Assembly: GCA_020047785.1 (NCBI GenBank) | Contig: JAIFNI010000061.1 | Span: 1-57,129, forward strand | Length of the DNA stretch: 57,129 bases | Direction of reading: 5' to 3' | Source of the DNA: Clostridia bacterium | GTDB lineage: Bacteria > Bacillota > Clostridia > DSM-8532 | Shown: positions 3,501 through 49,087 of the stretch, one piece after another | Numbering within the stretch: the first letter of the stretch is position 1 | How the letters are laid out: the number at the start of each line of letters is the position of its first letter | The notes under the pieces: model-generated | Databases searched by the model: none | The model's input: only the letters and a program-made list of their open reading frames with translations | Told to the model about the DNA's origin: nothing | Translations under genes and position numbers: made by a program

Positions 3501-4775
3501 TCAAGCACGCTTCAGCAGGACAGCCTGTTCATACTCGCCCGCTTCGTCCACCCAGTCGGTTCCGACGGGAACGCCTGCCTGCTGGCAGAACATATCCCAG
3601 ACGGCCGCAAACGGAAGGGATTTGTACTCTTCCACCAAAGCCAGACGGCGACCGTAATTTCCGGCAGCTTCCGCTTCAAGCAGCAGGAAGGTGGGTTCAA
3701 GCAAGGCAATCAGAATAGCCTTCTGCGCGGCACGGGTTCCGGTAACCCAGGCCATGATGCGGTTGATGCTGCCGTCAAAGAAATCCAGCGCGAAATAGAT
3801 CCGTTCGAACGCATCGCAGCGTTTCACTTCCTGGGCCAACGAAAGGAGATCGTCGTTCAGGGTGACCACGTGATCGCTGTCCCAGCGGACGGGACGGGAA
3901 ACGTGCAGCAGAAGGGTATCCGCATACAGCAAGGTGGCGGAGATCTTGTCCGCCACACTTTCTGTCAGGTGAAAGTGTCCCATGTCGTAGCAGACAGTCA
4001 CATCGTTTTTCAAGCCATAACCCAGGACAAATTCATGGGAAGCAACCGTGTATGATTCCACGCCGATGCCGAAAAGCTTGCTTTCAAAGGCATCGACAAG
4101 GTATTTCCGGTCGTACTTGGTCAGAAGGATGAGGTCCATCGCATGCTTCATGCGCTGGCGATAGCCGAGACGATCCGCCGGCTGATCCTTCATTCCGTCC
4201 GGGAACCAGATGTTCATGACACAGGGGGTTCCGGTCTCCTTGCCAATATCGGAGGCGATGGCCCGGCAGGCTTTGACATGGTTGATCCAGAACGTGCGTA
4301 CTTCTTCATCCGCACTGGAGACCGTGAATCCGGAAGCGGCCATCGGATGCCCGAAGCAGCTTGGATTGAAGTCCACGCCGACACCAAGCTTCTTCGCCCA
4401 ATCTATCCATTTCCGGAAATGCTCCGTCTTCAGCTGGTCACGCGGAACGGAAACACCATCCGTTTCCGCATAGATGGCGTGAAGGTTCACCCGGTGCTTG
4501 CCGGGAATGAGGGAAAGTGCCTTCTCATAGTCGGCACGAAGCTCATCGCCGTTCCGCGCCGCACCGGGATAGGAACCGGTGCTGAGGATGCCGCCCGAAG
4601 TTCCGCCCGCGTCCGTCTCGAAGCCCCGCACATCATCCCCCTGCCAGCAATGCAGGGAAATGGGCTGCTTCATGATTTTCGCCAGCACGGCATCCGTATC
4701 AACACCCAATAACGCATATCTGGCCTTCGCGCCTTCATAAGCCTGTTGAATCGTCAATTCACTTATTTTTCCCAT
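3501..4775 (-). CDS. rhaA: L-rhamnose isomerase
   Basis: ORF 3501..4841. ATG at 4775 chosen (GGGAGCGAGG upstream). Contains the HCWQGDDVRGFE signature and is of RhaA-like length. Confidence 0.9.
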   Translation of the reverse strand: MGKISELTIQQAYEGAKARYALLGVDTDAVLAKIMKQPISLHCWQGDDVRGFETDAGGTSGGILSTGSYPGAARNGDELRADYEKALSLIPGKHRVNLHAIYAETDGVSVPRDQLKTEHFRKWIDWAKKLGVGVDFNPSCFGHPMAASGFTVSSADEEVRTFWINHVKACRAIASDIGKETGTPCVMNIWFPDGMKDQPADRLGYRQRMKHAMDLILLTKYDRKYLVDAFESKLFGIGVESYTVASHEFVLGYGLKNDVTVCYDMGHFHLTESVADKISATLLYADTLLLHVSRPVRWDSDHVVTLNDDLLSLAQEVKRCDAFERIYFALDFFDGSINRIMAWVTGTRAAQKAILIALLEPTFLLLEAEAAGNYGRRLALVEEYKSLPFAAVWDMFCQQAGVPVGTDWVDEAGEYEQAVLLKRA

Positions 4776-6748: not shown

Positions 6749-7279
6749 ATGGATTTCCGGGAGATTGCAAAAAAAAGGTGTTCCGTCAGGGCATATGAGG
6801 ACAGACCGGTGGAAATGGAAAAGCAGATCCAAATCCTCGAATCCGGCCGTTTTGCGCCGACAGGCGCGAATCGGCAGCCTCAGAGGCTCATCGTCGTGAA
6901 GGAAACAGATGATCTGGCCCGACTGGCGGCAGGTGCGAACACGTTCAAGGCACCGCTTGCCATCATAGTCTGCGCCGACCATGGCGCCTCATGGAAACGT
7001 TCCTATGACCGCAAGGATATTGCGGATATCGATGCAAGCATCGTTACGGATCACATGATGCTGCAGGCAACGGATCTGGGCCTCGGTTCCTGCTGGATCT
7101 GCCACTTCAATCCGGAGGTCATCCGGAAGGAATTCAATATTCCGGCCCAAGTCGAACCCATCAACATTCTGGCAATCGGATATTCAGCGGACGCGCCCAA
7201 GCCGGACGACCGGCATGACCAGGACCGCATGCCGCTGAAGAGCATTGTCCATTACGGCCGATACGGCACCAAGGAATGA
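6749..7279 (+). CDS. Nitroreductase family protein
   Basis: ORF 6743..7279. Second ATG (6749) has GGAG 7 nt upstream. Shows RCSVRAY and the typical nitroreductase N-terminal pattern. Confidence 0.85.
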   Translation: MDFREIAKKRCSVRAYEDRPVEMEKQIQILESGRFAPTGANRQPQRLIVVKETDDLARLAAGANTFKAPLAIIVCADHGASWKRSYDRKDIADIDASIVTDHMMLQATDLGLGSCWICHFNPEVIRKEFNIPAQVEPINILAIGYSADAPKPDDRHDQDRMPLKSIVHYGRYGTKE

Positions 7280-7396
7280 CAACGGGTCCATCAGGTCCGA
7301 TACGGCATCAGGGAATGATAACGTCCGATACATCATCCGGGAATGACAACGGGTCCATCAGGTCCTATACATCATCCGGGAATGATTTCGGACCCC
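7258..7396. repeat. Four tandem copies (28-39 nt) of the 3' end plus stop codon of the nitroreductase gene
   Basis: Units start at 7258, 7297, 7325 and 7364 (CCGATACGGCACCAAGGAATGACAACGGGTCCATCAGGT and variants). The first unit encodes the C-terminal RYGTKE-stop. Confidence 0.75.
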
Positions 7397-34053: not shown

Positions 34054-34780
34054 ATGAAGATTCGTAAAAAAGGAATGATGGCATTTTCAGCCGCAGCGAT
34101 GGCCTTATTGCTGGGCTTGACGGGTTGTGGTTCTTCGGTGACGGACCCAACCACCAGAACGACGGATGAACCGGCTGTATCAGCCAGTCCCGAGTTGATG
34201 GACAAAGTGGAGGCGGCGGAATCGGCCAGTCCTGAAATAATGGCCAAAGAGGAGCAGGCGGAATCGGCCAGTCCTGAAATGATGGCCAAAGAGGAGTCCT
34301 GAAATGATGGCCAAAGAGGAAGGTGCTGCGGCGGATGACGCCGGGCTGATGTCTGTCACCTATGAAAAGAACTTCGCCTTGATGGATTTGAGCGGGAAAA
34401 CAGTCAGCCTGAATGATTATGACGGAAAAAAAATATATGTGAAGTTTTGGGGAACCTGGTGTTCCATTTGTCTCGCAGGAATCGACGAACTTGAATCCTT
34501 TGCGGCAGAGCAAAATGGCGGTACCGATGCAGCCGTGATTACCATTGTCGCTCCGGGTGTCAATGGCGAATTCAATCCGGACGACTTCAAGGACTGGTAC
34601 GAAAAGAAGGGGTACACCTTCCCGGTGTTGTTCGATGACGGCGGCAAGGTCCTTCAGGAATTTGGTGTTCGTGCTTTCCCGACATCTGTGATCTTTGAAA
34701 AAAATGGCAGGATCTCCACCATTCGCCCCGGTCATATTGAGAACGAAGACCTCAGGAACCTATTGAACAAGGAACAGTAA
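34054..34780 (+). pseudogene. TlpA/ResA-like thiol-disulfide oxidoreductase lipoprotein, split into two ORFs (34054..34302 and 34304..34780) by a 25-bp tandem duplication
   Basis: ORF1 carries the lipoprotein signal (LLLGLTGC) and AESASPE(I/M)MAKEE repeats, then TGA at 34300. ORF2 carries the thioredoxin fold with WCSIC. Removing one 25-nt copy restores a single frame. Confidence 0.75.
34216..34321 (+). repeat. 42-nt coding tandem repeat (2 full units + truncated third), equivalently a 25-nt direct duplication at 34272-34296 / 34297-34321
   Basis: Read directly: gcggaatcggccagtcctgaaatRatggccaaagaggagcag x2, followed by tcctgaaatgatggccaaagaggaa. Confidence 0.85.
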
Positions 34781-37148: not shown

Positions 37149-37604
37149 CTATTCTTTTATTTCCATTGCGTTCAAACGGGTGCGAACGTTCTGAAGTTGC
37201 GTTTCTAGTCGTGTCGCTTCCAGATTCAGCAAGGCTTTTTCCTCGGCTTCAGCCAAAGGACTGGAATCGGTCACATCCTGCGCCAACCTGGCACCAAGTC
37301 GCCGACCGCAACCCTGGCGGGCACCACGTCCGAGTCCAAGCCCCAAACCGGCATTCGCTCCGCGTCCAAGTCCCAAACCGGCATTCGCTCCACGTCCAAG
37401 TCCCAAACCGGCATTTGCTCCGCGTCCAAGCCCCAAACCGGCATTCGCTCCGCGTCCAAGCCCCAAACCGGCATTCGCTCCGCGTCCAGGTGCAAAGCCG
37501 CTTGTGCCGGCTCCTGTGTCGGTTCCTCCTCCAGCACAATCTCCCATCCCACGTCCTGTGGCTGGTCCCATCCCATTCGGTCCTGTTCCATTCAATCTAG
37601 GCAT
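37149..37604 (-). CDS. DUF5320-like small protein with expanded Gly-rich decapeptide repeat and C-terminal coiled coil
   Basis: ORF 37149..37829. ATG 37604 has AGGAGAG upstream. N-terminus MPRLNGTGPNGMGPATGRGMGDCAGG matches the DUF5320 pattern as I recall it. Five identical GRGANAGLGL units. Confidence 0.7.
   Translation of the reverse strand: MPRLNGTGPNGMGPATGRGMGDCAGGGTDTGAGTSGFAPGRGANAGLGLGRGANAGLGLGRGANAGLGLGRGANAGLGLGRGANAGLGLGLGRGARQGCGRRLGARLAQDVTDSSPLAEAEEKALLNLEATRLETQLQNVRTRLNAMEIKE
37336..37485. repeat. Five tandem 30-nt units inside the DUF5320-like CDS
   Basis: Units at 37336, 37366, 37396, 37426 and 37456. Only three polymorphic positions (37371, 37392, 37416), all at third codon positions. 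Confidence 0.9.
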
Positions 37605-44357: not shown

Positions 44358-45134
44358 ATGTCGAACCAAATCCTTTCCATGCAGAATATCGTCAAAACCT
44401 ACCAAATGGGGTTGGAAGAGCAAACTGTCCTGAAAGGCGTCAACTTCTCCCTGAACGAAGGGGAGTTCGTGTCCATCCTTGGACCTTCCGGTTCCGGAAA
44501 ATCCACCCTGATGAACATCATCGGCTGTCTGGATGTCCCCACCAGCGGTGCGTATACGCTCAACGGGCATTCAGTGGAGGAACTCGACGAGTGCGACCTT
44601 GCGCAGGCGAGAAACAGTGAAATCGGGTTTGTGTTTCAACAATTCCAGCTCCTGCCCCGGCTGTCCGCTTTGCAGAATGTCGAGCTTCCCCTGATTTATT
44701 CCGGAATTCCAGGCAAGGAACGCAGAAAAATGGCAGCCGACATGCTGGTGAAGGTGGGGTTGGGTGACAAACTGAAAAACCGTCCCAATCAATTGTCCGG
44801 CGGGCAGCAGCAGCGGGTGGCGATCGCAAGGGCACTGGTCACCCACCCCACCATCCTGTTGGCTGACGAACCAACCGGCGCGTTGGATCAAAAGACGGGA
44901 AACCAAATCATGGACCTGTTTCAAGCGCTGAACAAAGAGGGCAGGACCATCGTCATGATCACCCATGATGAAAAAATCGCCGCACATGGCAGCCGCGTCG
45001 TGAAAATTTTGGATGGCGAATTGTTCGAAGAACGCAATCGAATGAAACTCCTCCCAATCATGTCGGAAAGTGCCGAAGACTTACTGAACATCCCGAACAA
45101 TCCACCTACGACAGACCAGATGCAGGAGGACTGA
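44358..45134 (+). CDS. ABC transporter ATP-binding protein (MacB/LolD-type)
   Basis: GPSGSGKST Walker A, LSGGQQQR signature, LLADEPT Walker B. Confidence 0.9.
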   Translation: MSNQILSMQNIVKTYQMGLEEQTVLKGVNFSLNEGEFVSILGPSGSGKSTLMNIIGCLDVPTSGAYTLNGHSVEELDECDLAQARNSEIGFVFQQFQLLPRLSALQNVELPLIYSGIPGKERRKMAADMLVKVGLGDKLKNRPNQLSGGQQQRVAIARALVTHPTILLADEPTGALDQKTGNQIMDLFQALNKEGRTIVMITHDEKIAAHGSRVVKILDGELFEERNRMKLLPIMSESAEDLLNIPNNPPTTDQMQED

Positions 45135-45137
45135 AAC

Positions 45138-46310
45138 GTGCTGAAAGAAAGCATTCTCATGTCATGGCAAAACATCATCCACAACAAGATGCGTTCCTTT
45201 CTGACGGTGTTGGGCGTACTTATCGGCGTTGCCTCCATCATTGCCCTGATTTCCATTGTGCAGGGCGTTACGGACAACATCACCTCCCAGGTCATGGACA
45301 TGGGCGCGAACAAAGTCACCGTTCAGGCAATGGGGACCCCCTTGAAAAGAGGGCTCTCAGTCAATGACATGGATACCATCTCTTCCATCGACAACATCAA
45401 GGGCGTGTCTCCAGGCGTCAGCGGCCGAACAAGTCTCTCTCATGAAGGTCATGTCATGGAAGAGGTGGATGTGCAGGGCAGAAATGAAGTGCACTTTGCA
45501 AACACGGAGGACTTGCTCCAAAGCGGCAGAGCCATCAACCGGCTGGATGTGGACAACAGGAACCAGGTCTGTCTGATTGGCCACGATGTCGTATCCGAAC
45601 TCTTTCCGACAGAGAACCCGATTGACAGGGAAATCATCGTGAACGGCAGCACGTTTCTTGTCATCGGCACCTTGCAGGAATCAAGCGGATTTTCGGCAGG
45701 CGGGAATGATCAGGCGGTGATCATCCCCTATACGACGGCAAAAAGCCTGCTCGGGATCGGATATGTCACATCCCTCGACGTTTACCTGATGGATGAGACA
45801 TTGTCCGACACCACGACCGCTGAAATCGAATCGGCCCTGCAAGTCGCCTTCAACGACAATGAGGATGGTTACAAGGTTTCCAACATGCAGGGCATTCTCG
45901 ATACGGTCGCCGACATGACCGGAACGCTGACACTGATGCTGGCGGGCATCGCCTGCATCTCCCTGATTGTCGGCGGCATAGGGATCATGAACATGATGCT
46001 GGTGACCGTGACAGAACGCACAGCCGAAATCGGTCTCCGGAAAGCGCTTGGCGCGGAACCCAAAACCATCCAATGGCAATTTGTCCTTGAAGCCCTGTTC
46101 CTTTCCTTGTTCGGCGGCGTACTCGGACTAGTCGCCGGGGTTGCGGTTGCTTATGTCGGCAGCATGCTCATGGGCGTGAGTTTCATCGTTCCTGCCTATT
46201 CCATCGGGCTGGCAGTCGGTTTTTCCGCCATCATCGGGATTGTCTTCGGATACTCTCCCGCCCGAAAAGCAAGCAGGCTGAATCCCATTGATGCCTTGCG
46301 GAGTGCCTGA
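45138..46310 (+). CDS. ABC transporter permease (MacB_PCD + FtsX domain)
   Basis: 390-aa ORF, GTG start 8 nt after AGGAGG. N-terminal TM, periplasmic domain, C-terminal FtsX-like three-TM bundle. Confidence 0.9.
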   Translation: MLKESILMSWQNIIHNKMRSFLTVLGVLIGVASIIALISIVQGVTDNITSQVMDMGANKVTVQAMGTPLKRGLSVNDMDTISSIDNIKGVSPGVSGRTSLSHEGHVMEEVDVQGRNEVHFANTEDLLQSGRAINRLDVDNRNQVCLIGHDVVSELFPTENPIDREIIVNGSTFLVIGTLQESSGFSAGGNDQAVIIPYTTAKSLLGIGYVTSLDVYLMDETLSDTTTAEIESALQVAFNDNEDGYKVSNMQGILDTVADMTGTLTLMLAGIACISLIVGGIGIMNMMLVTVTERTAEIGLRKALGAEPKTIQWQFVLEALFLSLFGGVLGLVAGVAVAYVGSMLMGVSFIVPAYSIGLAVGFSAIIGIVFGYSPARKASRLNPIDALRSA

Positions 46311-46525
46311 ATTTTTCGTGATATGATTGTACAAACGGTATTCCGAGGTTGCGCGCCTGGATTGCGATAGCCCCTTTGCCTGAGAGCCTGACCTAATTGA
46401 CTGCTTGCAGAAATATGTATGTTTCCAGGCTCCAAATGACTTCGACTAAAAACATCAAAAGACTTCGATTAAAAGCTCCAGAACACTCCGATTACTCTTG
46501 ATGTCAATCAGGATAATATGATAAC

Positions 46526-46730
46526 ATGATTCTCGTACACAAAGTCGATTTTCGACTTTTTCATGCAAGTTGCAGAATGCAACTTGCATGCTTGTGGCGA
46601 CATTGTCGCCACAAGGCACGGAATCACATGATTCGGTGTGTGAATGACACATATTGTGCCATTCACATGCAGGATTCCAGAGGAATCCTGCATAACAACT
46701 CGCAAAAGCGAGTTGTTACACCAGAATCAT
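46526..46730. other. Multi-hairpin structured element, copy A (seven abutting stem-loops inside an 8-bp closing helix)
   Basis: Closing helix 46526-46533 / 46723-46730. H1 46541-46559, H2 46562-46590, H3 46591-46615, H4 46617-46638, H5 46640-46666, H6 46667-46693, H7 46694-46717. All read directly. Confidence 0.85.
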
Positions 46731-46741
46731 AACATGGTTAC

Positions 46742-46774
46742 ACCTCGAAAAGTCGCATTGCGACTCTTCGAGGT
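46742..46774. other. Additional 15-bp stem-loop (one A/C mismatch) between element A and the ATPase start
   Basis: acctcgaaaagtcgc (46742-46756) / gcgactcttcgaggt (46760-46774), loop att. Confidence 0.7.
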
Positions 46775-46809
46775 CCAATCATAGCATCAAGTCCTCGAGG
46801 TGCATGCTT

Positions 46810-48105
46810 ATGAAAACAAGTTACATGCAACGGATCGTTGATAGTGAATTGTCTGACCGCCTGGACGCAATGGGTGCGGTGTTGATTACTGGTCCCAAGT
46901 GGTGCGGGAAAACGACAACAGCAATCCAAAAAGCAAAAAGTGTTTTAAAAATGCAGGATCCCGACAAAACAGCAGCCTATTTGGCCACCGCTCAAACAAA
47001 ACCGTCATTGCTGTTAATCGGAGATAATCCAAGGCTGATTGACGAATGGCAAATGGCACCGGTTTTGTGGGATGCGGTCAGAACAGCAGTCGACGAACGC
47101 AATGAAGAAGGCCTTTTCATTTTGACAGGCTCAACAACGATTGATTACTCGCAAATCATGCATTCCGGTACAGGCAGGATATCCAGACTCGTCATGCGCC
47201 CGATGAGCTTATATGAATCAAAAGAATCAAGTGGAAGCATATCATTAAAGAGTTTGTTTGATGACAGAGACCTGGAAATAGATGGGATTCAATCTCCGTT
47301 GTCCATTGAAAAACTAATCTTTGCTGCATGCAGAGGTGGATGGCCATCCAGTTTATCAAAGAAAAATGATAAGGCGAGTTTGTTTGTTGCAAGTTCCTAT
47401 ATCGATGACATATGTGAAAATGACGTTTCAACAGTTGATGGGACAAAAAAAGAGCCACAAAGAGTGCGCGCATTGCTTCGGTCCTATGCCAGAAATATTG
47501 CGACTTCGGCAGCAAACACAACGGTTCTCAAGGATATGAACGCGAATTTTGATAATATGGTTGAATCAACAATGTACGCCTATTTGGATGCATTGAACAG
47601 AATATTCGTCATTGATGATATTCCTGCCTGGAGTCCTTCCATCCGGTCTAAAACATCCATAAGAGGAAAAAACAAAAAACTGTTTATTGATCCGTCCATC
47701 GCGGTTGCTGCATTAAGGTTGTCTCCGGAATTATTGATGCAAGACATGAACACTTTTGGATTCCTGTTTGAAAATTTATGTGTCAGAGACTTAAAAGTGT
47801 ATTCAAGCAAACTTGGAGGGCAAATCTCCTATTATCATGATCGTTTTGGACTGGAAGCGGATGCTGTATTGCATCTTGATGACGGCAGATATGCGCTGAT
47901 AGAATTCAAGCTTGGAAGTAGAGATATTGAAGACGCGTCAAAACACCTCCTGCAGCTAAAAGAACTGGTAATAAAATATAACCAGAACACGCAAACATCA
48001 AAAATAAGAGAACCTGATTTACTGGTAGTCATCACTGGTGGGGAACTTGCTTATTCAAGAAAAGATGGTGTGAAAATCATCCCTGTCGGCTGTTTGAAAG
48101 ACTAA
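46810..48105 (+). CDS. AAA ATPase with DUF4143 / PD-(D/E)xK-like C-terminal domain (COG1373-type)
   Basis: ORF 46804..48105. ATG 46810 lies 7 nt after GAGGTG. Walker A GPKWCGKTT, Walker B-like FILTGS, C-terminal EADAVL...ALIEFKLG nuclease-like motif. Visibly AT-richer than its neighbours (not computed). Confidence 0.8.
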   Translation: MKTSYMQRIVDSELSDRLDAMGAVLITGPKWCGKTTTAIQKAKSVLKMQDPDKTAAYLATAQTKPSLLLIGDNPRLIDEWQMAPVLWDAVRTAVDERNEEGLFILTGSTTIDYSQIMHSGTGRISRLVMRPMSLYESKESSGSISLKSLFDDRDLEIDGIQSPLSIEKLIFAACRGGWPSSLSKKNDKASLFVASSYIDDICENDVSTVDGTKKEPQRVRALLRSYARNIATSAANTTVLKDMNANFDNMVESTMYAYLDALNRIFVIDDIPAWSPSIRSKTSIRGKNKKLFIDPSIAVAALRLSPELLMQDMNTFGFLFENLCVRDLKVYSSKLGGQISYYHDRFGLEADAVLHLDDGRYALIEFKLGSRDIEDASKHLLQLKELVIKYNQNTQTSKIREPDLLVVITGGELAYSRKDGVKIIPVGCLKD

Positions 48106-48167
48106 CACAGCAAACTGGCCGGCAAAAAGCATGCTGTATTTCTTGACATGTTATTTTTCCCTCATGA

Positions 48168-48380
48168 AAGCTTGATTCTCGTGCAAAAAGTCGTTTTTCG
48201 ACTTTTTCATGCAAGTTGCGATTCGCAACTTGCATGCCTACAGCGGCGATGCCGCTGTAGGGCACGGAATCACGTGATTCGGTGTGTAAATGACACCATC
48301 GGTGTCATTTACATGCAGGATTCCTTTGGAATCCTGCATAACAACTCGCAAATGCGAGTTGTTACACCAGAATCAAGCTT
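48168..48380. other. Multi-hairpin structured element, copy B (same seven stem-loops inside a 12-bp closing helix)
   Basis: Closing helix 48168-48179 / 48369-48380. H1 48185-48207, H2 48208-48236, H3 48237-48261, H4 48263-48284, H5 48286-48312, H6 48313-48339, H7 48340-48363. Confidence 0.85.
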
Positions 48381-48415
48381 GTTTTACTTACAGAATAGCG
48401 CAGGGAGGTGGAAGT

Positions 48416-49087
48416 GTGTTCCATATTCTAGTCTGCGAAGATGAGCGTAACATCCGGAATCTGATGAGCGAGTACCTGAGGGCCGACCATTACAAGGTGT
48501 ATGAAAGCGATAACGGAGAGGCGGCTCTCTCCATTCTGGAAAGCACGCACATCGACTTGCTGATTACAGACATCATGATGCCCGTCATGGACGGGTACGC
48601 GTTGTCGAAGGAATTGCGCGAATCCGGACAGACCCTGCCCATCCTCATGATTACGGCGAAGGAAACGCTGGATGACAAGAAAAAAGGTTTTCATAACGGC
48701 ACCGATGATTACATGGTCAAGCCCATCGACATGGAGGAAATGCTGCTTCGCGTCTCCGCGCTGCTTCGCCGGTCGAAAATCGCCAGCGAGAAGAAGCTGA
48801 TCCTCGGAGACACGGTGTTCGATTATGAAAAATTCTCAGTTACGGTTCAACAAAAGGAAATCGACCTCCCCAAGAAAGAGTTTCAATTAATCTTCATGCT
48901 CCTGTCGGGTGCAGGCAGAATCTTCACCCGACAGCAGATCATGGACGAACTCTGGGGTTATGATTCGGAAAGCGACGGGCAGACGGTGAATGTGCATATC
49001 AGCAGACTGCGGGAACGATTCGGCGGCAACAGGGACTTTGAAATCGTCACGGTCAAAGGACTGGGATACAAGGCGGTCAAACTATGA
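48416..49087 (+). CDS. OmpR-family response regulator
   Basis: GTG start at 48416, 7 nt after GGAGG. ILVCEDE...ITDIMMPVMDG receiver and winged-helix VHISRLRERFG. Confidence 0.85.
   Translation: MFHILVCEDERNIRNLMSEYLRADHYKVYESDNGEAALSILESTHIDLLITDIMMPVMDGYALSKELRESGQTLPILMITAKETLDDKKKGFHNGTDDYMVKPIDMEEMLLRVSALLRRSKIASEKKLILGDTVFDYEKFSVTVQQKEIDLPKKEFQLIFMLLSGAGRIFTRQQIMDELWGYDSESDGQTVNVHISRLRERFGGNRDFEIVTVKGLGYKAVKL

Follow-up and report, generated by a model that had tools for sequence, protein, structure and literature searches.

A non-coding mobile element of ~200 bp in uncultured Clostridia-type bacteria, with palindromes probably maintained at the DNA level

Two copies of a small element composed of consecutive hairpins flank a single gene in the window, i.e., the whole stretch of 57,129 nucleotides that was analysed. 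A sequence-only reading of this DNA had noticed that the stem differences between the copies are compensated and had argued for selection on pairing itself. The locus raises the question of what kind of element this is and what keeps its stems perfect.

Two insertions on either side of one gene

The two copies, A and B, are direct repeats that align without gaps at 83-84% identity, copy A (alignment at 46518-46729) lying upstream of copy B with an offset of 1646 bp. Both contain the same seven hairpins (H1-H7) in identical order, as was confirmed from the sequence and by folding each copy: the predicted fold of copy B has a free energy of -135.2 kcal/mol (z = -17.4) and that of copy A of -114.7 kcal/mol (z = -13.9), and none of 200 dinucleotide shuffles was as good in either case. 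The differences described earlier were also recovered. In the alignment, the apical pair of H2 changes from A-T to G-C, and 5 of the 11 stem positions of H3 differ with all five partners changed too; the changes in the H5 stem are present as described, and the loops differ between the copies.

A 3.5-kb metagenome contig, L001, which was reached by an exact-sequence look-up of the ATPase protein encoded between the copies, carries the same region without them. It aligns to positions 45099-46528, 46726-48174 and 48375-48568 of the window at 97-99.9% identity and skips both copies exactly. At site A, L001 reads tgATAACATgg, with a single ATAACAT, whereas the window has ATAACAT on either side of the insert. 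At site B, L001 reads gaAAGCTTgttt, with AAGCTT present once, whereas AAGCTT stands on either side of the insert in the window. Empty sites with a single flanking repeat imply that copies A and B are independent insertions of a mobile element with target-site duplications (TSDs), one on each side of the same gene, a mobility that the sequence-only reading had overlooked. These empty sites rule out that the ATPase gene lies in a cassette or in a recently duplicated segment. The features are as follows.

46521..46527, no strand: left TSD of copy A, ATAACAT, 7 bp, single in the empty site of L001
46528..46728, forward strand: copy A, 201 bp, recognised by its alignment to copy B, its absence from L001, its terminal inverted repeat (TIR) matches and its fold
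46528-46547, forward strand, and 46709-46728, reverse strand: TIRs of copy A, matching the TIR pattern
46729..46735, no strand: right TSD of copy A, ATAACAT, single in the empty site of L001
46804..48105, forward strand: DUF4143/AAA_14 ATPase gene (Pfam matches), between the insertions and present in L001 without them
48168..48173, no strand: left TSD of copy B, AAGCTT, 6 bp, single in the empty site of L001
48174..48374, forward strand: copy B, 201 bp, GATTCT...AGAATC, comprising the left TIR, H1-H7 and the right TIR
48174..48193, forward strand: left TIR of copy B, GATTCTCGTGCAAAAAGTCG, an exact match to the consensus that overlaps the 5' arm of H1
48355..48374, reverse strand: right TIR of copy B, reverse complement GATTCTGGTGTAACAACTCG, a pattern match that overlaps the 3' arm of H7
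48375..48380, no strand: right TSD of copy B, AAGCTT, single in the empty site of L001

Since L001 carries AAGCTT once, the outer six pairs of the 12-bp helix that had been proposed to close the structure (48168-48179 / 48369-48380) are duplicated target rather than element: this helix consists of 6 bp of palindromic TSD and 6 bp of TIR. The change from an A-T to a T-A pair that had been read as a compensation in the closing helix thus sits in flanking target DNA, outside the element.

An imperfect TIR of 20 bp with the consensus GATTCTSGTGYAAMAASTCG is found at both ends of both copies and is conserved in 35 copies; the pattern derived from it matches four times in the window, where 0.04 matches are expected. 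A TSD of 6 bp was found in 29 of the 42 copies collected across all sources (20 of the 29 are perfect) and one of 7 bp in three. The TSD consensus is A-W-N-N-W-T, with A as the first base in 28 of 29 cases and T as the last in all 29. Termini of the type TG...CA with a 4-bp duplication are an equivalent description, which is indistinguishable here from the version with a 6-bp TSD.

The surrounding DNA is ordinary chromosomal DNA for sugar metabolism, and the DUF4143/AAA_14 ATPase gene is a bystander outside the element. Copy A lies 75 bp upstream of this gene, and copy B lies 69 bp downstream of it; the GTG start codon of an OmpR-type response regulator follows 41 bp after copy B. Here, copy B is located between a TTGACA hexamer (48145-48150) and the GGAGG ribosome-binding site with the GTG start (48404-48418) of the response-regulator/histidine-kinase operon. 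With copy B in this place, the operon could be cut off from its promoter or have an altered 5' UTR. ORFs of 68 and 98 codons run through copies A and B, respectively (46526-46732 and 48148-48444); as other copies do not preserve them, they are chance ORFs, by which gene-calling programs could be misled.

A few other repeats were observed in the window. A native imperfect hairpin with arms of 24 nt (ACCTCGAAAAGTCGCATTGCGACTCTTCGAGGT) is found at 46734-46782, a few bp downstream of the site of copy A, and is also present in L001. H1 and H7 of the element are similar to its core, AAAAGTCG...CGACT, a similarity that may be coincidental or may mark the hairpin as what is left of an older mini-derivative. 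A tandem array with a period of 30 nt and at least six copies, with 66-93% identity to the reference copy TCCGCGTCCAAGYCCCAAACCGGCATTCGC, is located at 37299-37530 and may encode a repetitive protein segment. Further tandem repeats lie at 34172-34297 (42 nt x 3, 76% identity) and 7251-7384 (67 nt x 2, 84% identity).

A new family of modular elements

The element is a non-coding MITE of ~200 bp that represents a new, undescribed family in uncultured Clostridia-type bacteria. It has the size of a MITE, lacks coding capacity, is bounded by TIRs and a TSD, shows presence/absence polymorphism and occurs in many dispersed copies. No conserved ORF runs through it, with no frame open in more than 6 of 35 copies, and neither a promoter-like nor a terminator-like site was found inside it. 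A literature search on its sequence returned no description. Rfam gave no match at E <= 1 around the element and none relevant at the gathering score across the whole window. Copy B had no blastn match in plasmid and phage collections, and a scan of viral contigs with the TIR pattern and with a pattern for the H1-H2 junction gave 0 matches.

A scan of a genome collection with the TIR pattern yielded 86 loci, mostly at contig ends of one MAG. Indeed, ~70 of the 86 belong to the MAG of Clostridiaceae bacterium GL140_5 (JANYKF01), many of them at contig ends, a position typical of dispersed repeats. Copies are also carried by ~17 contigs of JFJP01, one full copy is present in an Oscillospiraceae MAG, and decayed relics occur in other Bacillota assemblies. 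A scan of metagenomes with the invariant H1-H2 junction pattern revealed 21 loci, with some copies 96% identical to copy B. Outside the window, the copies are solitary and lie in unrelated intergenic regions. In the MAG with most copies, the rhamnose-isomerase region (213-1366 of locus L028) is 79.5% identical at the nucleotide level to positions 3546-4699 of the window, so the family spans clearly different species.

An autonomous parent or a transposase with matching ends was not found in ~0.6 Mb of fetched loci. The ORFs beside matches that consist of a TIR only are ordinary genes and revealed no parent IS, TIR pairs spaced 0.3-3 kb apart occur in none of the fetched loci, and no transposase is present among the scanned ORFs of the window.

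The hairpins behave as modules. Versions with six hairpins, lacking H5, measure 171-182 bp (L062, 898-1069; L071, 3823-3993; L094, 1212-1393). Two of these, L062 and L071, carry the H6 stem of the window type (GATTCC/GGAATC) though they are located in the MAG, where the main family has GATGTC/GACATC, and L101 mixes hairpin types of different subfamilies. Partial internal duplications are found in L039 and L017. At the other extreme, mini-derivatives of 44-45 bp consist only of the left and right TIRs, fused into a single hairpin (L026, 1078-1121; L073, 2237-2281). Solitary TIRs and half-copies represent truncated elements. In some copies, the truncation lies near H3/H4, and half-copies that extend from near the H3/H4 boundary to the right end occur in L107 (9483-9596), L035 (3075-3188) and L085 (2501-2608), with no obvious target duplication around these three. 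That the breakpoint recurs at the central palindrome is suggestive of deletion stimulated by this palindrome or of use of an inner TIR-like motif.

Covariation and the maintenance of perfect stems

What we consider probable is that the element is a mobile MITE with palindromes kept by arm-to-arm copying at the DNA level and not by selection on an RNA fold. The pairing itself was assessed in an alignment (A3) of 35 full-length copies from Clostridia-type assemblies, the copies having been recovered by BLAST and by matching of the TIR. The seven-hairpin structure pairs 97.0% of the cells in this alignment. Two-sided changes are seen in 28 of 86 pairs, as compared with 13.9 +/- 1.8 in shuffles (0 of 500 reached the observed value) and 5-7 in slid controls, and the covariation score is 0.166 vs. 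0.072 in shuffles. RNAalifold independently recovers the same hairpins. Most double changes are located in H3, H5, H6 and H7, whilst hardly any variation is seen in H1, H2 and the ends; as the search pattern imposed columns 1-20, the conservation of the TIR and the 5' arm of H1 is partly a matter of ascertainment. That pairing is kept through two-sided changes, as had been claimed from the two window copies, is borne out by a covariation far above the controls.

How this pairing is kept can be read from the variants. Hairpins that are exact reverse complements of each other between copies were found for H2, H3, H4 and H6. In H2, GCGATTCGC is exchanged for GCGAATCGC; the loop of H3 flips between AAAT and ATTT inside the MAG family; and in H4, G.G alternates with C.C. 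The loop of H6 is TTT in copy B and AAA in L096 and L107, which are 96% identical to copy B overall, and it changes from AGA to TCT in L067. Three adjacent transversions in near-identical copies are unlike point mutation and are a signature of template switching or arm-mediated inversion. Mutations by template switching that fix stems and invert loops have been described (Monttinen and Loytynoja, 2022; PMC8794818).

The near-absence of G-T pairs that had been noted in the window copies is not a property of the wider family: mismatched stem cells comprise 32 G.T and 40 A.C, i.e., about equal numbers, with no strand-specific tolerance. Among 40 double-change states, 21 are of the transition type and 19 of the transversion type, and the latter cannot have passed through a wobble intermediate. 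As DNA, the opposite strand folds equally well (z = -18.4). Together with the loop inversions, these observations favour the DNA-level, strand-symmetric and templated self-correction that the sequence-only reading had offered as one option.

Its argument for selection on pairing survives in part. The uncompensated stem changes that it had named in advance as evidence to the contrary are partly there: private variant states are mismatched in 59 cases and compensated in 17. Given so many uncompensated private changes, each genomic copy by itself is not under selection for pairing; what stands is that pairing is kept along propagating lineages. States shared by at least two copies are compensated in 23 cases and mismatched in 22. 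Even among the private states, compensation amounts to 22%, far above the ~1% that we estimate for independent changes at ~3% divergence. Within the MAG family, the stems have diverged by 3.3% and the loops by 6.0%, a difference that purifying selection on copies could also explain.

According to the proposed mechanism, a transposase that binds the terminal repeats would move the element in trans. Template switching in replication, or inversion between the arms of a palindrome, would copy one arm from the other, whereby a change in one arm would be erased or mirrored in a single step. Such mirroring would produce apparently compensated substitutions, with no G.T intermediates and with flipped loops. 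Immobile copies would decay through ordinary uncompensated mutation, and lineages that still propagate would show perfect stems only. Template switching and selection on structure both predict compensated differences at the level of lineages, and the loop flips show a mutational process at work, not its sufficiency. In active copies, intact palindromes are likely to be under some selection, which is not separable here from elapsed time.

A further feature of the element is its centre, where two inner TIR-like motifs meet.

48266..48287, forward strand: H4, CACGGAATCAC abutted to GTGATTCGGTG, a pair of inner TIR-like motifs that adjoin each other exactly midway along the element

The consensus of H4 is CACSGAATCAC directly followed by GTGATTYSGTG. 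The halves of the element on both sides of this centre are inverted homologues of ~100 bp each, with 63-67% identity (~8 sd above shuffles): H1 matches H7, H2 matches H6, and H3 matches H5, giving three short perfect palindromes per half. The variable S position agrees within halves: the window copies have C/C in the left half and G/G in the right half, and the arrangement is reversed in the group of L092 and L102 (left G/G, right C/C). In L022, the left outer repeat GATTCCACTG faces the inner partner CAGTGAATC. When pairing of the outer with the inner motif within its own half was tested (positions 1-10 with 94-102 and 107-115 with 197-206), this two-domain fold gained four two-sided pairs (7/97, 8/96, 112/200 and 115/197), which brought the total to 32, whilst the closing helix and H4 of the seven-hairpin fold contain zero two-sided pairs. 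The G/G mismatch in H4, earlier described as conserved in both copies, is indeed present in A and B but is better explained by these other pairing partners; in the two-domain fold, it becomes Watson-Crick paired, as does the G.T of the MAG copies. In most copies, the seven-hairpin fold has a thermodynamic advantage of 3-9 kcal/mol; in L022, the advantage is with the two-domain fold. Both folds are possible, and covariation favours the two domains of ~100 nt with three hairpins each. In form, H4 corresponds to a right end abutted to a left end (..GAATCACGTGATTC..), comparable to the IR-IR junctions in IS intermediates that are circular or tandem. Inverted dimerisation of a ~100-bp unit may have given rise to the 200-bp element.

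One may suppose that the hairpins are recognition structures required for transposition, the ends folding, as single-stranded or extruded DNA, into two cloverleaf-like three-hairpin domains to be read by the transposase or a host factor, and that selection on this fold in active copies would account for the compensation. The covariation of the closing helices within the halves, which is clearest in L022, agrees with this idea, as do the more frequent compensation of lineage-level than of private differences, the near invariance of H1 and the strand-symmetric behaviour that is expected of DNA. Nevertheless, we hold it unlikely. The conservation of the TIR and the 5' arm of H1 is partly an effect of the search pattern; the existence of six-hairpin versions and of 44-45-bp insertions with TIRs only means that the full hairpin set is not obligatory; no transposase with matching ends was found in the fetched loci; and TIRs with TSDs are typical of double-strand DDE transposition, for which folded DNA is not required. 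Somewhat less likely again is a reading in which each ~100-nt half, with a closing helix and three hairpins, would be a cloverleaf-like four-way junction read by its shape by a transposase or a host junction-binding protein, with template switching repairing the structures. If true, this would be a transposon with TIRs and TSDs with a mobility that depends on structure and not on sequence.

A structured non-coding RNA, i.e., a cis-regulatory or stabilising module with a fold selected at the RNA level and with mobility as a secondary property, would account for the very strong covariation and the extreme stability of the predicted structure. Transcripts of MITEs are known to form stable stem-loops (PMC10969869). 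The orientation of the copies gives this idea a slight further hint: in tandem gene contexts, 13 copies are oriented like the genes and 6 oppositely, an excess that is not significant but leaves room for an effect at the RNA level. Another nine copies are flanked by divergent genes and two by convergent genes, contexts that are uninformative on orientation; the gene neighbours were inferred from long ORFs, and the gene calls are approximate. However, G.T has no advantage over A.C; transversions, which cannot go through G.U, make up half of the double changes; loops flip to their reverse complements with the opposite strand folding as well; single copies decay uncompensated; and neither a promoter or terminator inside the element nor an Rfam match was found. 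Selection on an RNA fold is therefore improbable as the force that maintains the stems. The last alternative, in which the window copies delimit a gene cassette, as attC-like folded recombination sites or as parts of a composite transposon, with the ATPase gene as cargo, would fit two direct repeats that bracket one gene and the fact that integron attC sites also are DNA hairpins with conserved structure and variable sequence, but it has next to no chance of being right, as the gene occupies the same place in L001, where both copies are missing, a separate TSD accompanies each insertion, and copies elsewhere are solitary in unrelated intergenic regions.

What appeared to be a self-correcting multi-hairpin RNA becomes a concrete object that can be tested, namely a new MITE family in which filled and empty sites are clearly distinguished. 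This one small family offers a compact natural record of palindrome dynamics, including loop inversions, one-step compensation at several bases, and gain and loss of hairpins, and it is a good system for measuring how far template switching alone mimics a covariation signal. It is also a warning for covariation-based discovery of RNAs, since mobile palindromic repeats can pass tests of the R-scape type and not be RNAs.

Comparison with known systems

The element does not belong to a structured RNA family of Rfam, as no covariance model matches it. RNA-level selection would be expected to favour G.U over A.C and to give a bias toward transitions, and the counts of 32 vs. 40 and 21 vs. 19, respectively, do not agree with this. 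Integron attC sites share the feature of DNA hairpins, but the element differs from them in its ends, its TSDs, the lack of cassette behaviour and its solitary intergenic copies; the occurrence of the gene in L001 with no such sites, and the separate TSD at each site, exclude it from the attC sites and gene cassettes.

REP/BIME/REPIN elements and the pneumococcal BOX elements share with the element that they are intergenic clusters of short palindromes with modular gain and loss of hairpins and a high copy number. REP/REPIN elements are mobilised by HUH (RAYT) enzymes, carry a conserved head of the GTAG type and have neither TIRs nor target duplications. As it possesses both TIRs and target duplications, the element is not a member of this group.

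Elements of the IS6 family make 8-bp target duplications, in contrast to the 6 (7) bp of the element, and no IS6-type transposase was seen near it. The terminal repeat of the IS6 family (IS1216/IS257), GGTTCTGTTGCAAAGT as quoted in PMC2920175, nevertheless resembles the first ~14 nt of the TIR of the element, GATTCTSGTGYAAA, with ~11-12 of the first 14 positions matching when compared by eye. This resemblance is a lead only.

The element shares most with the prokaryotic MITEs, such as Correia/NEMIS, ERIC, RUP, bcr1, Nezha and QMITE: a small size, no coding capacity, TIRs, a TSD, insertion into AT-rich intergenic DNA, a high copy number and predicted folds of great stability (PMC10969869). It differs from these in that its interior is a row of six or seven short perfect palindromes and not one long foldback, and in its organisation as two inverted halves of ~100 bp with documented loop inversions. 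With the described cases of template switching, it has in common the one-step 'compensation' at several bases, the perfect stems and the inverted loops (PMC8794818). Whereas those cases are located in rRNA and microRNA genes, the present one concerns a mobile DNA element in multiple copies, with several flips in one small family.
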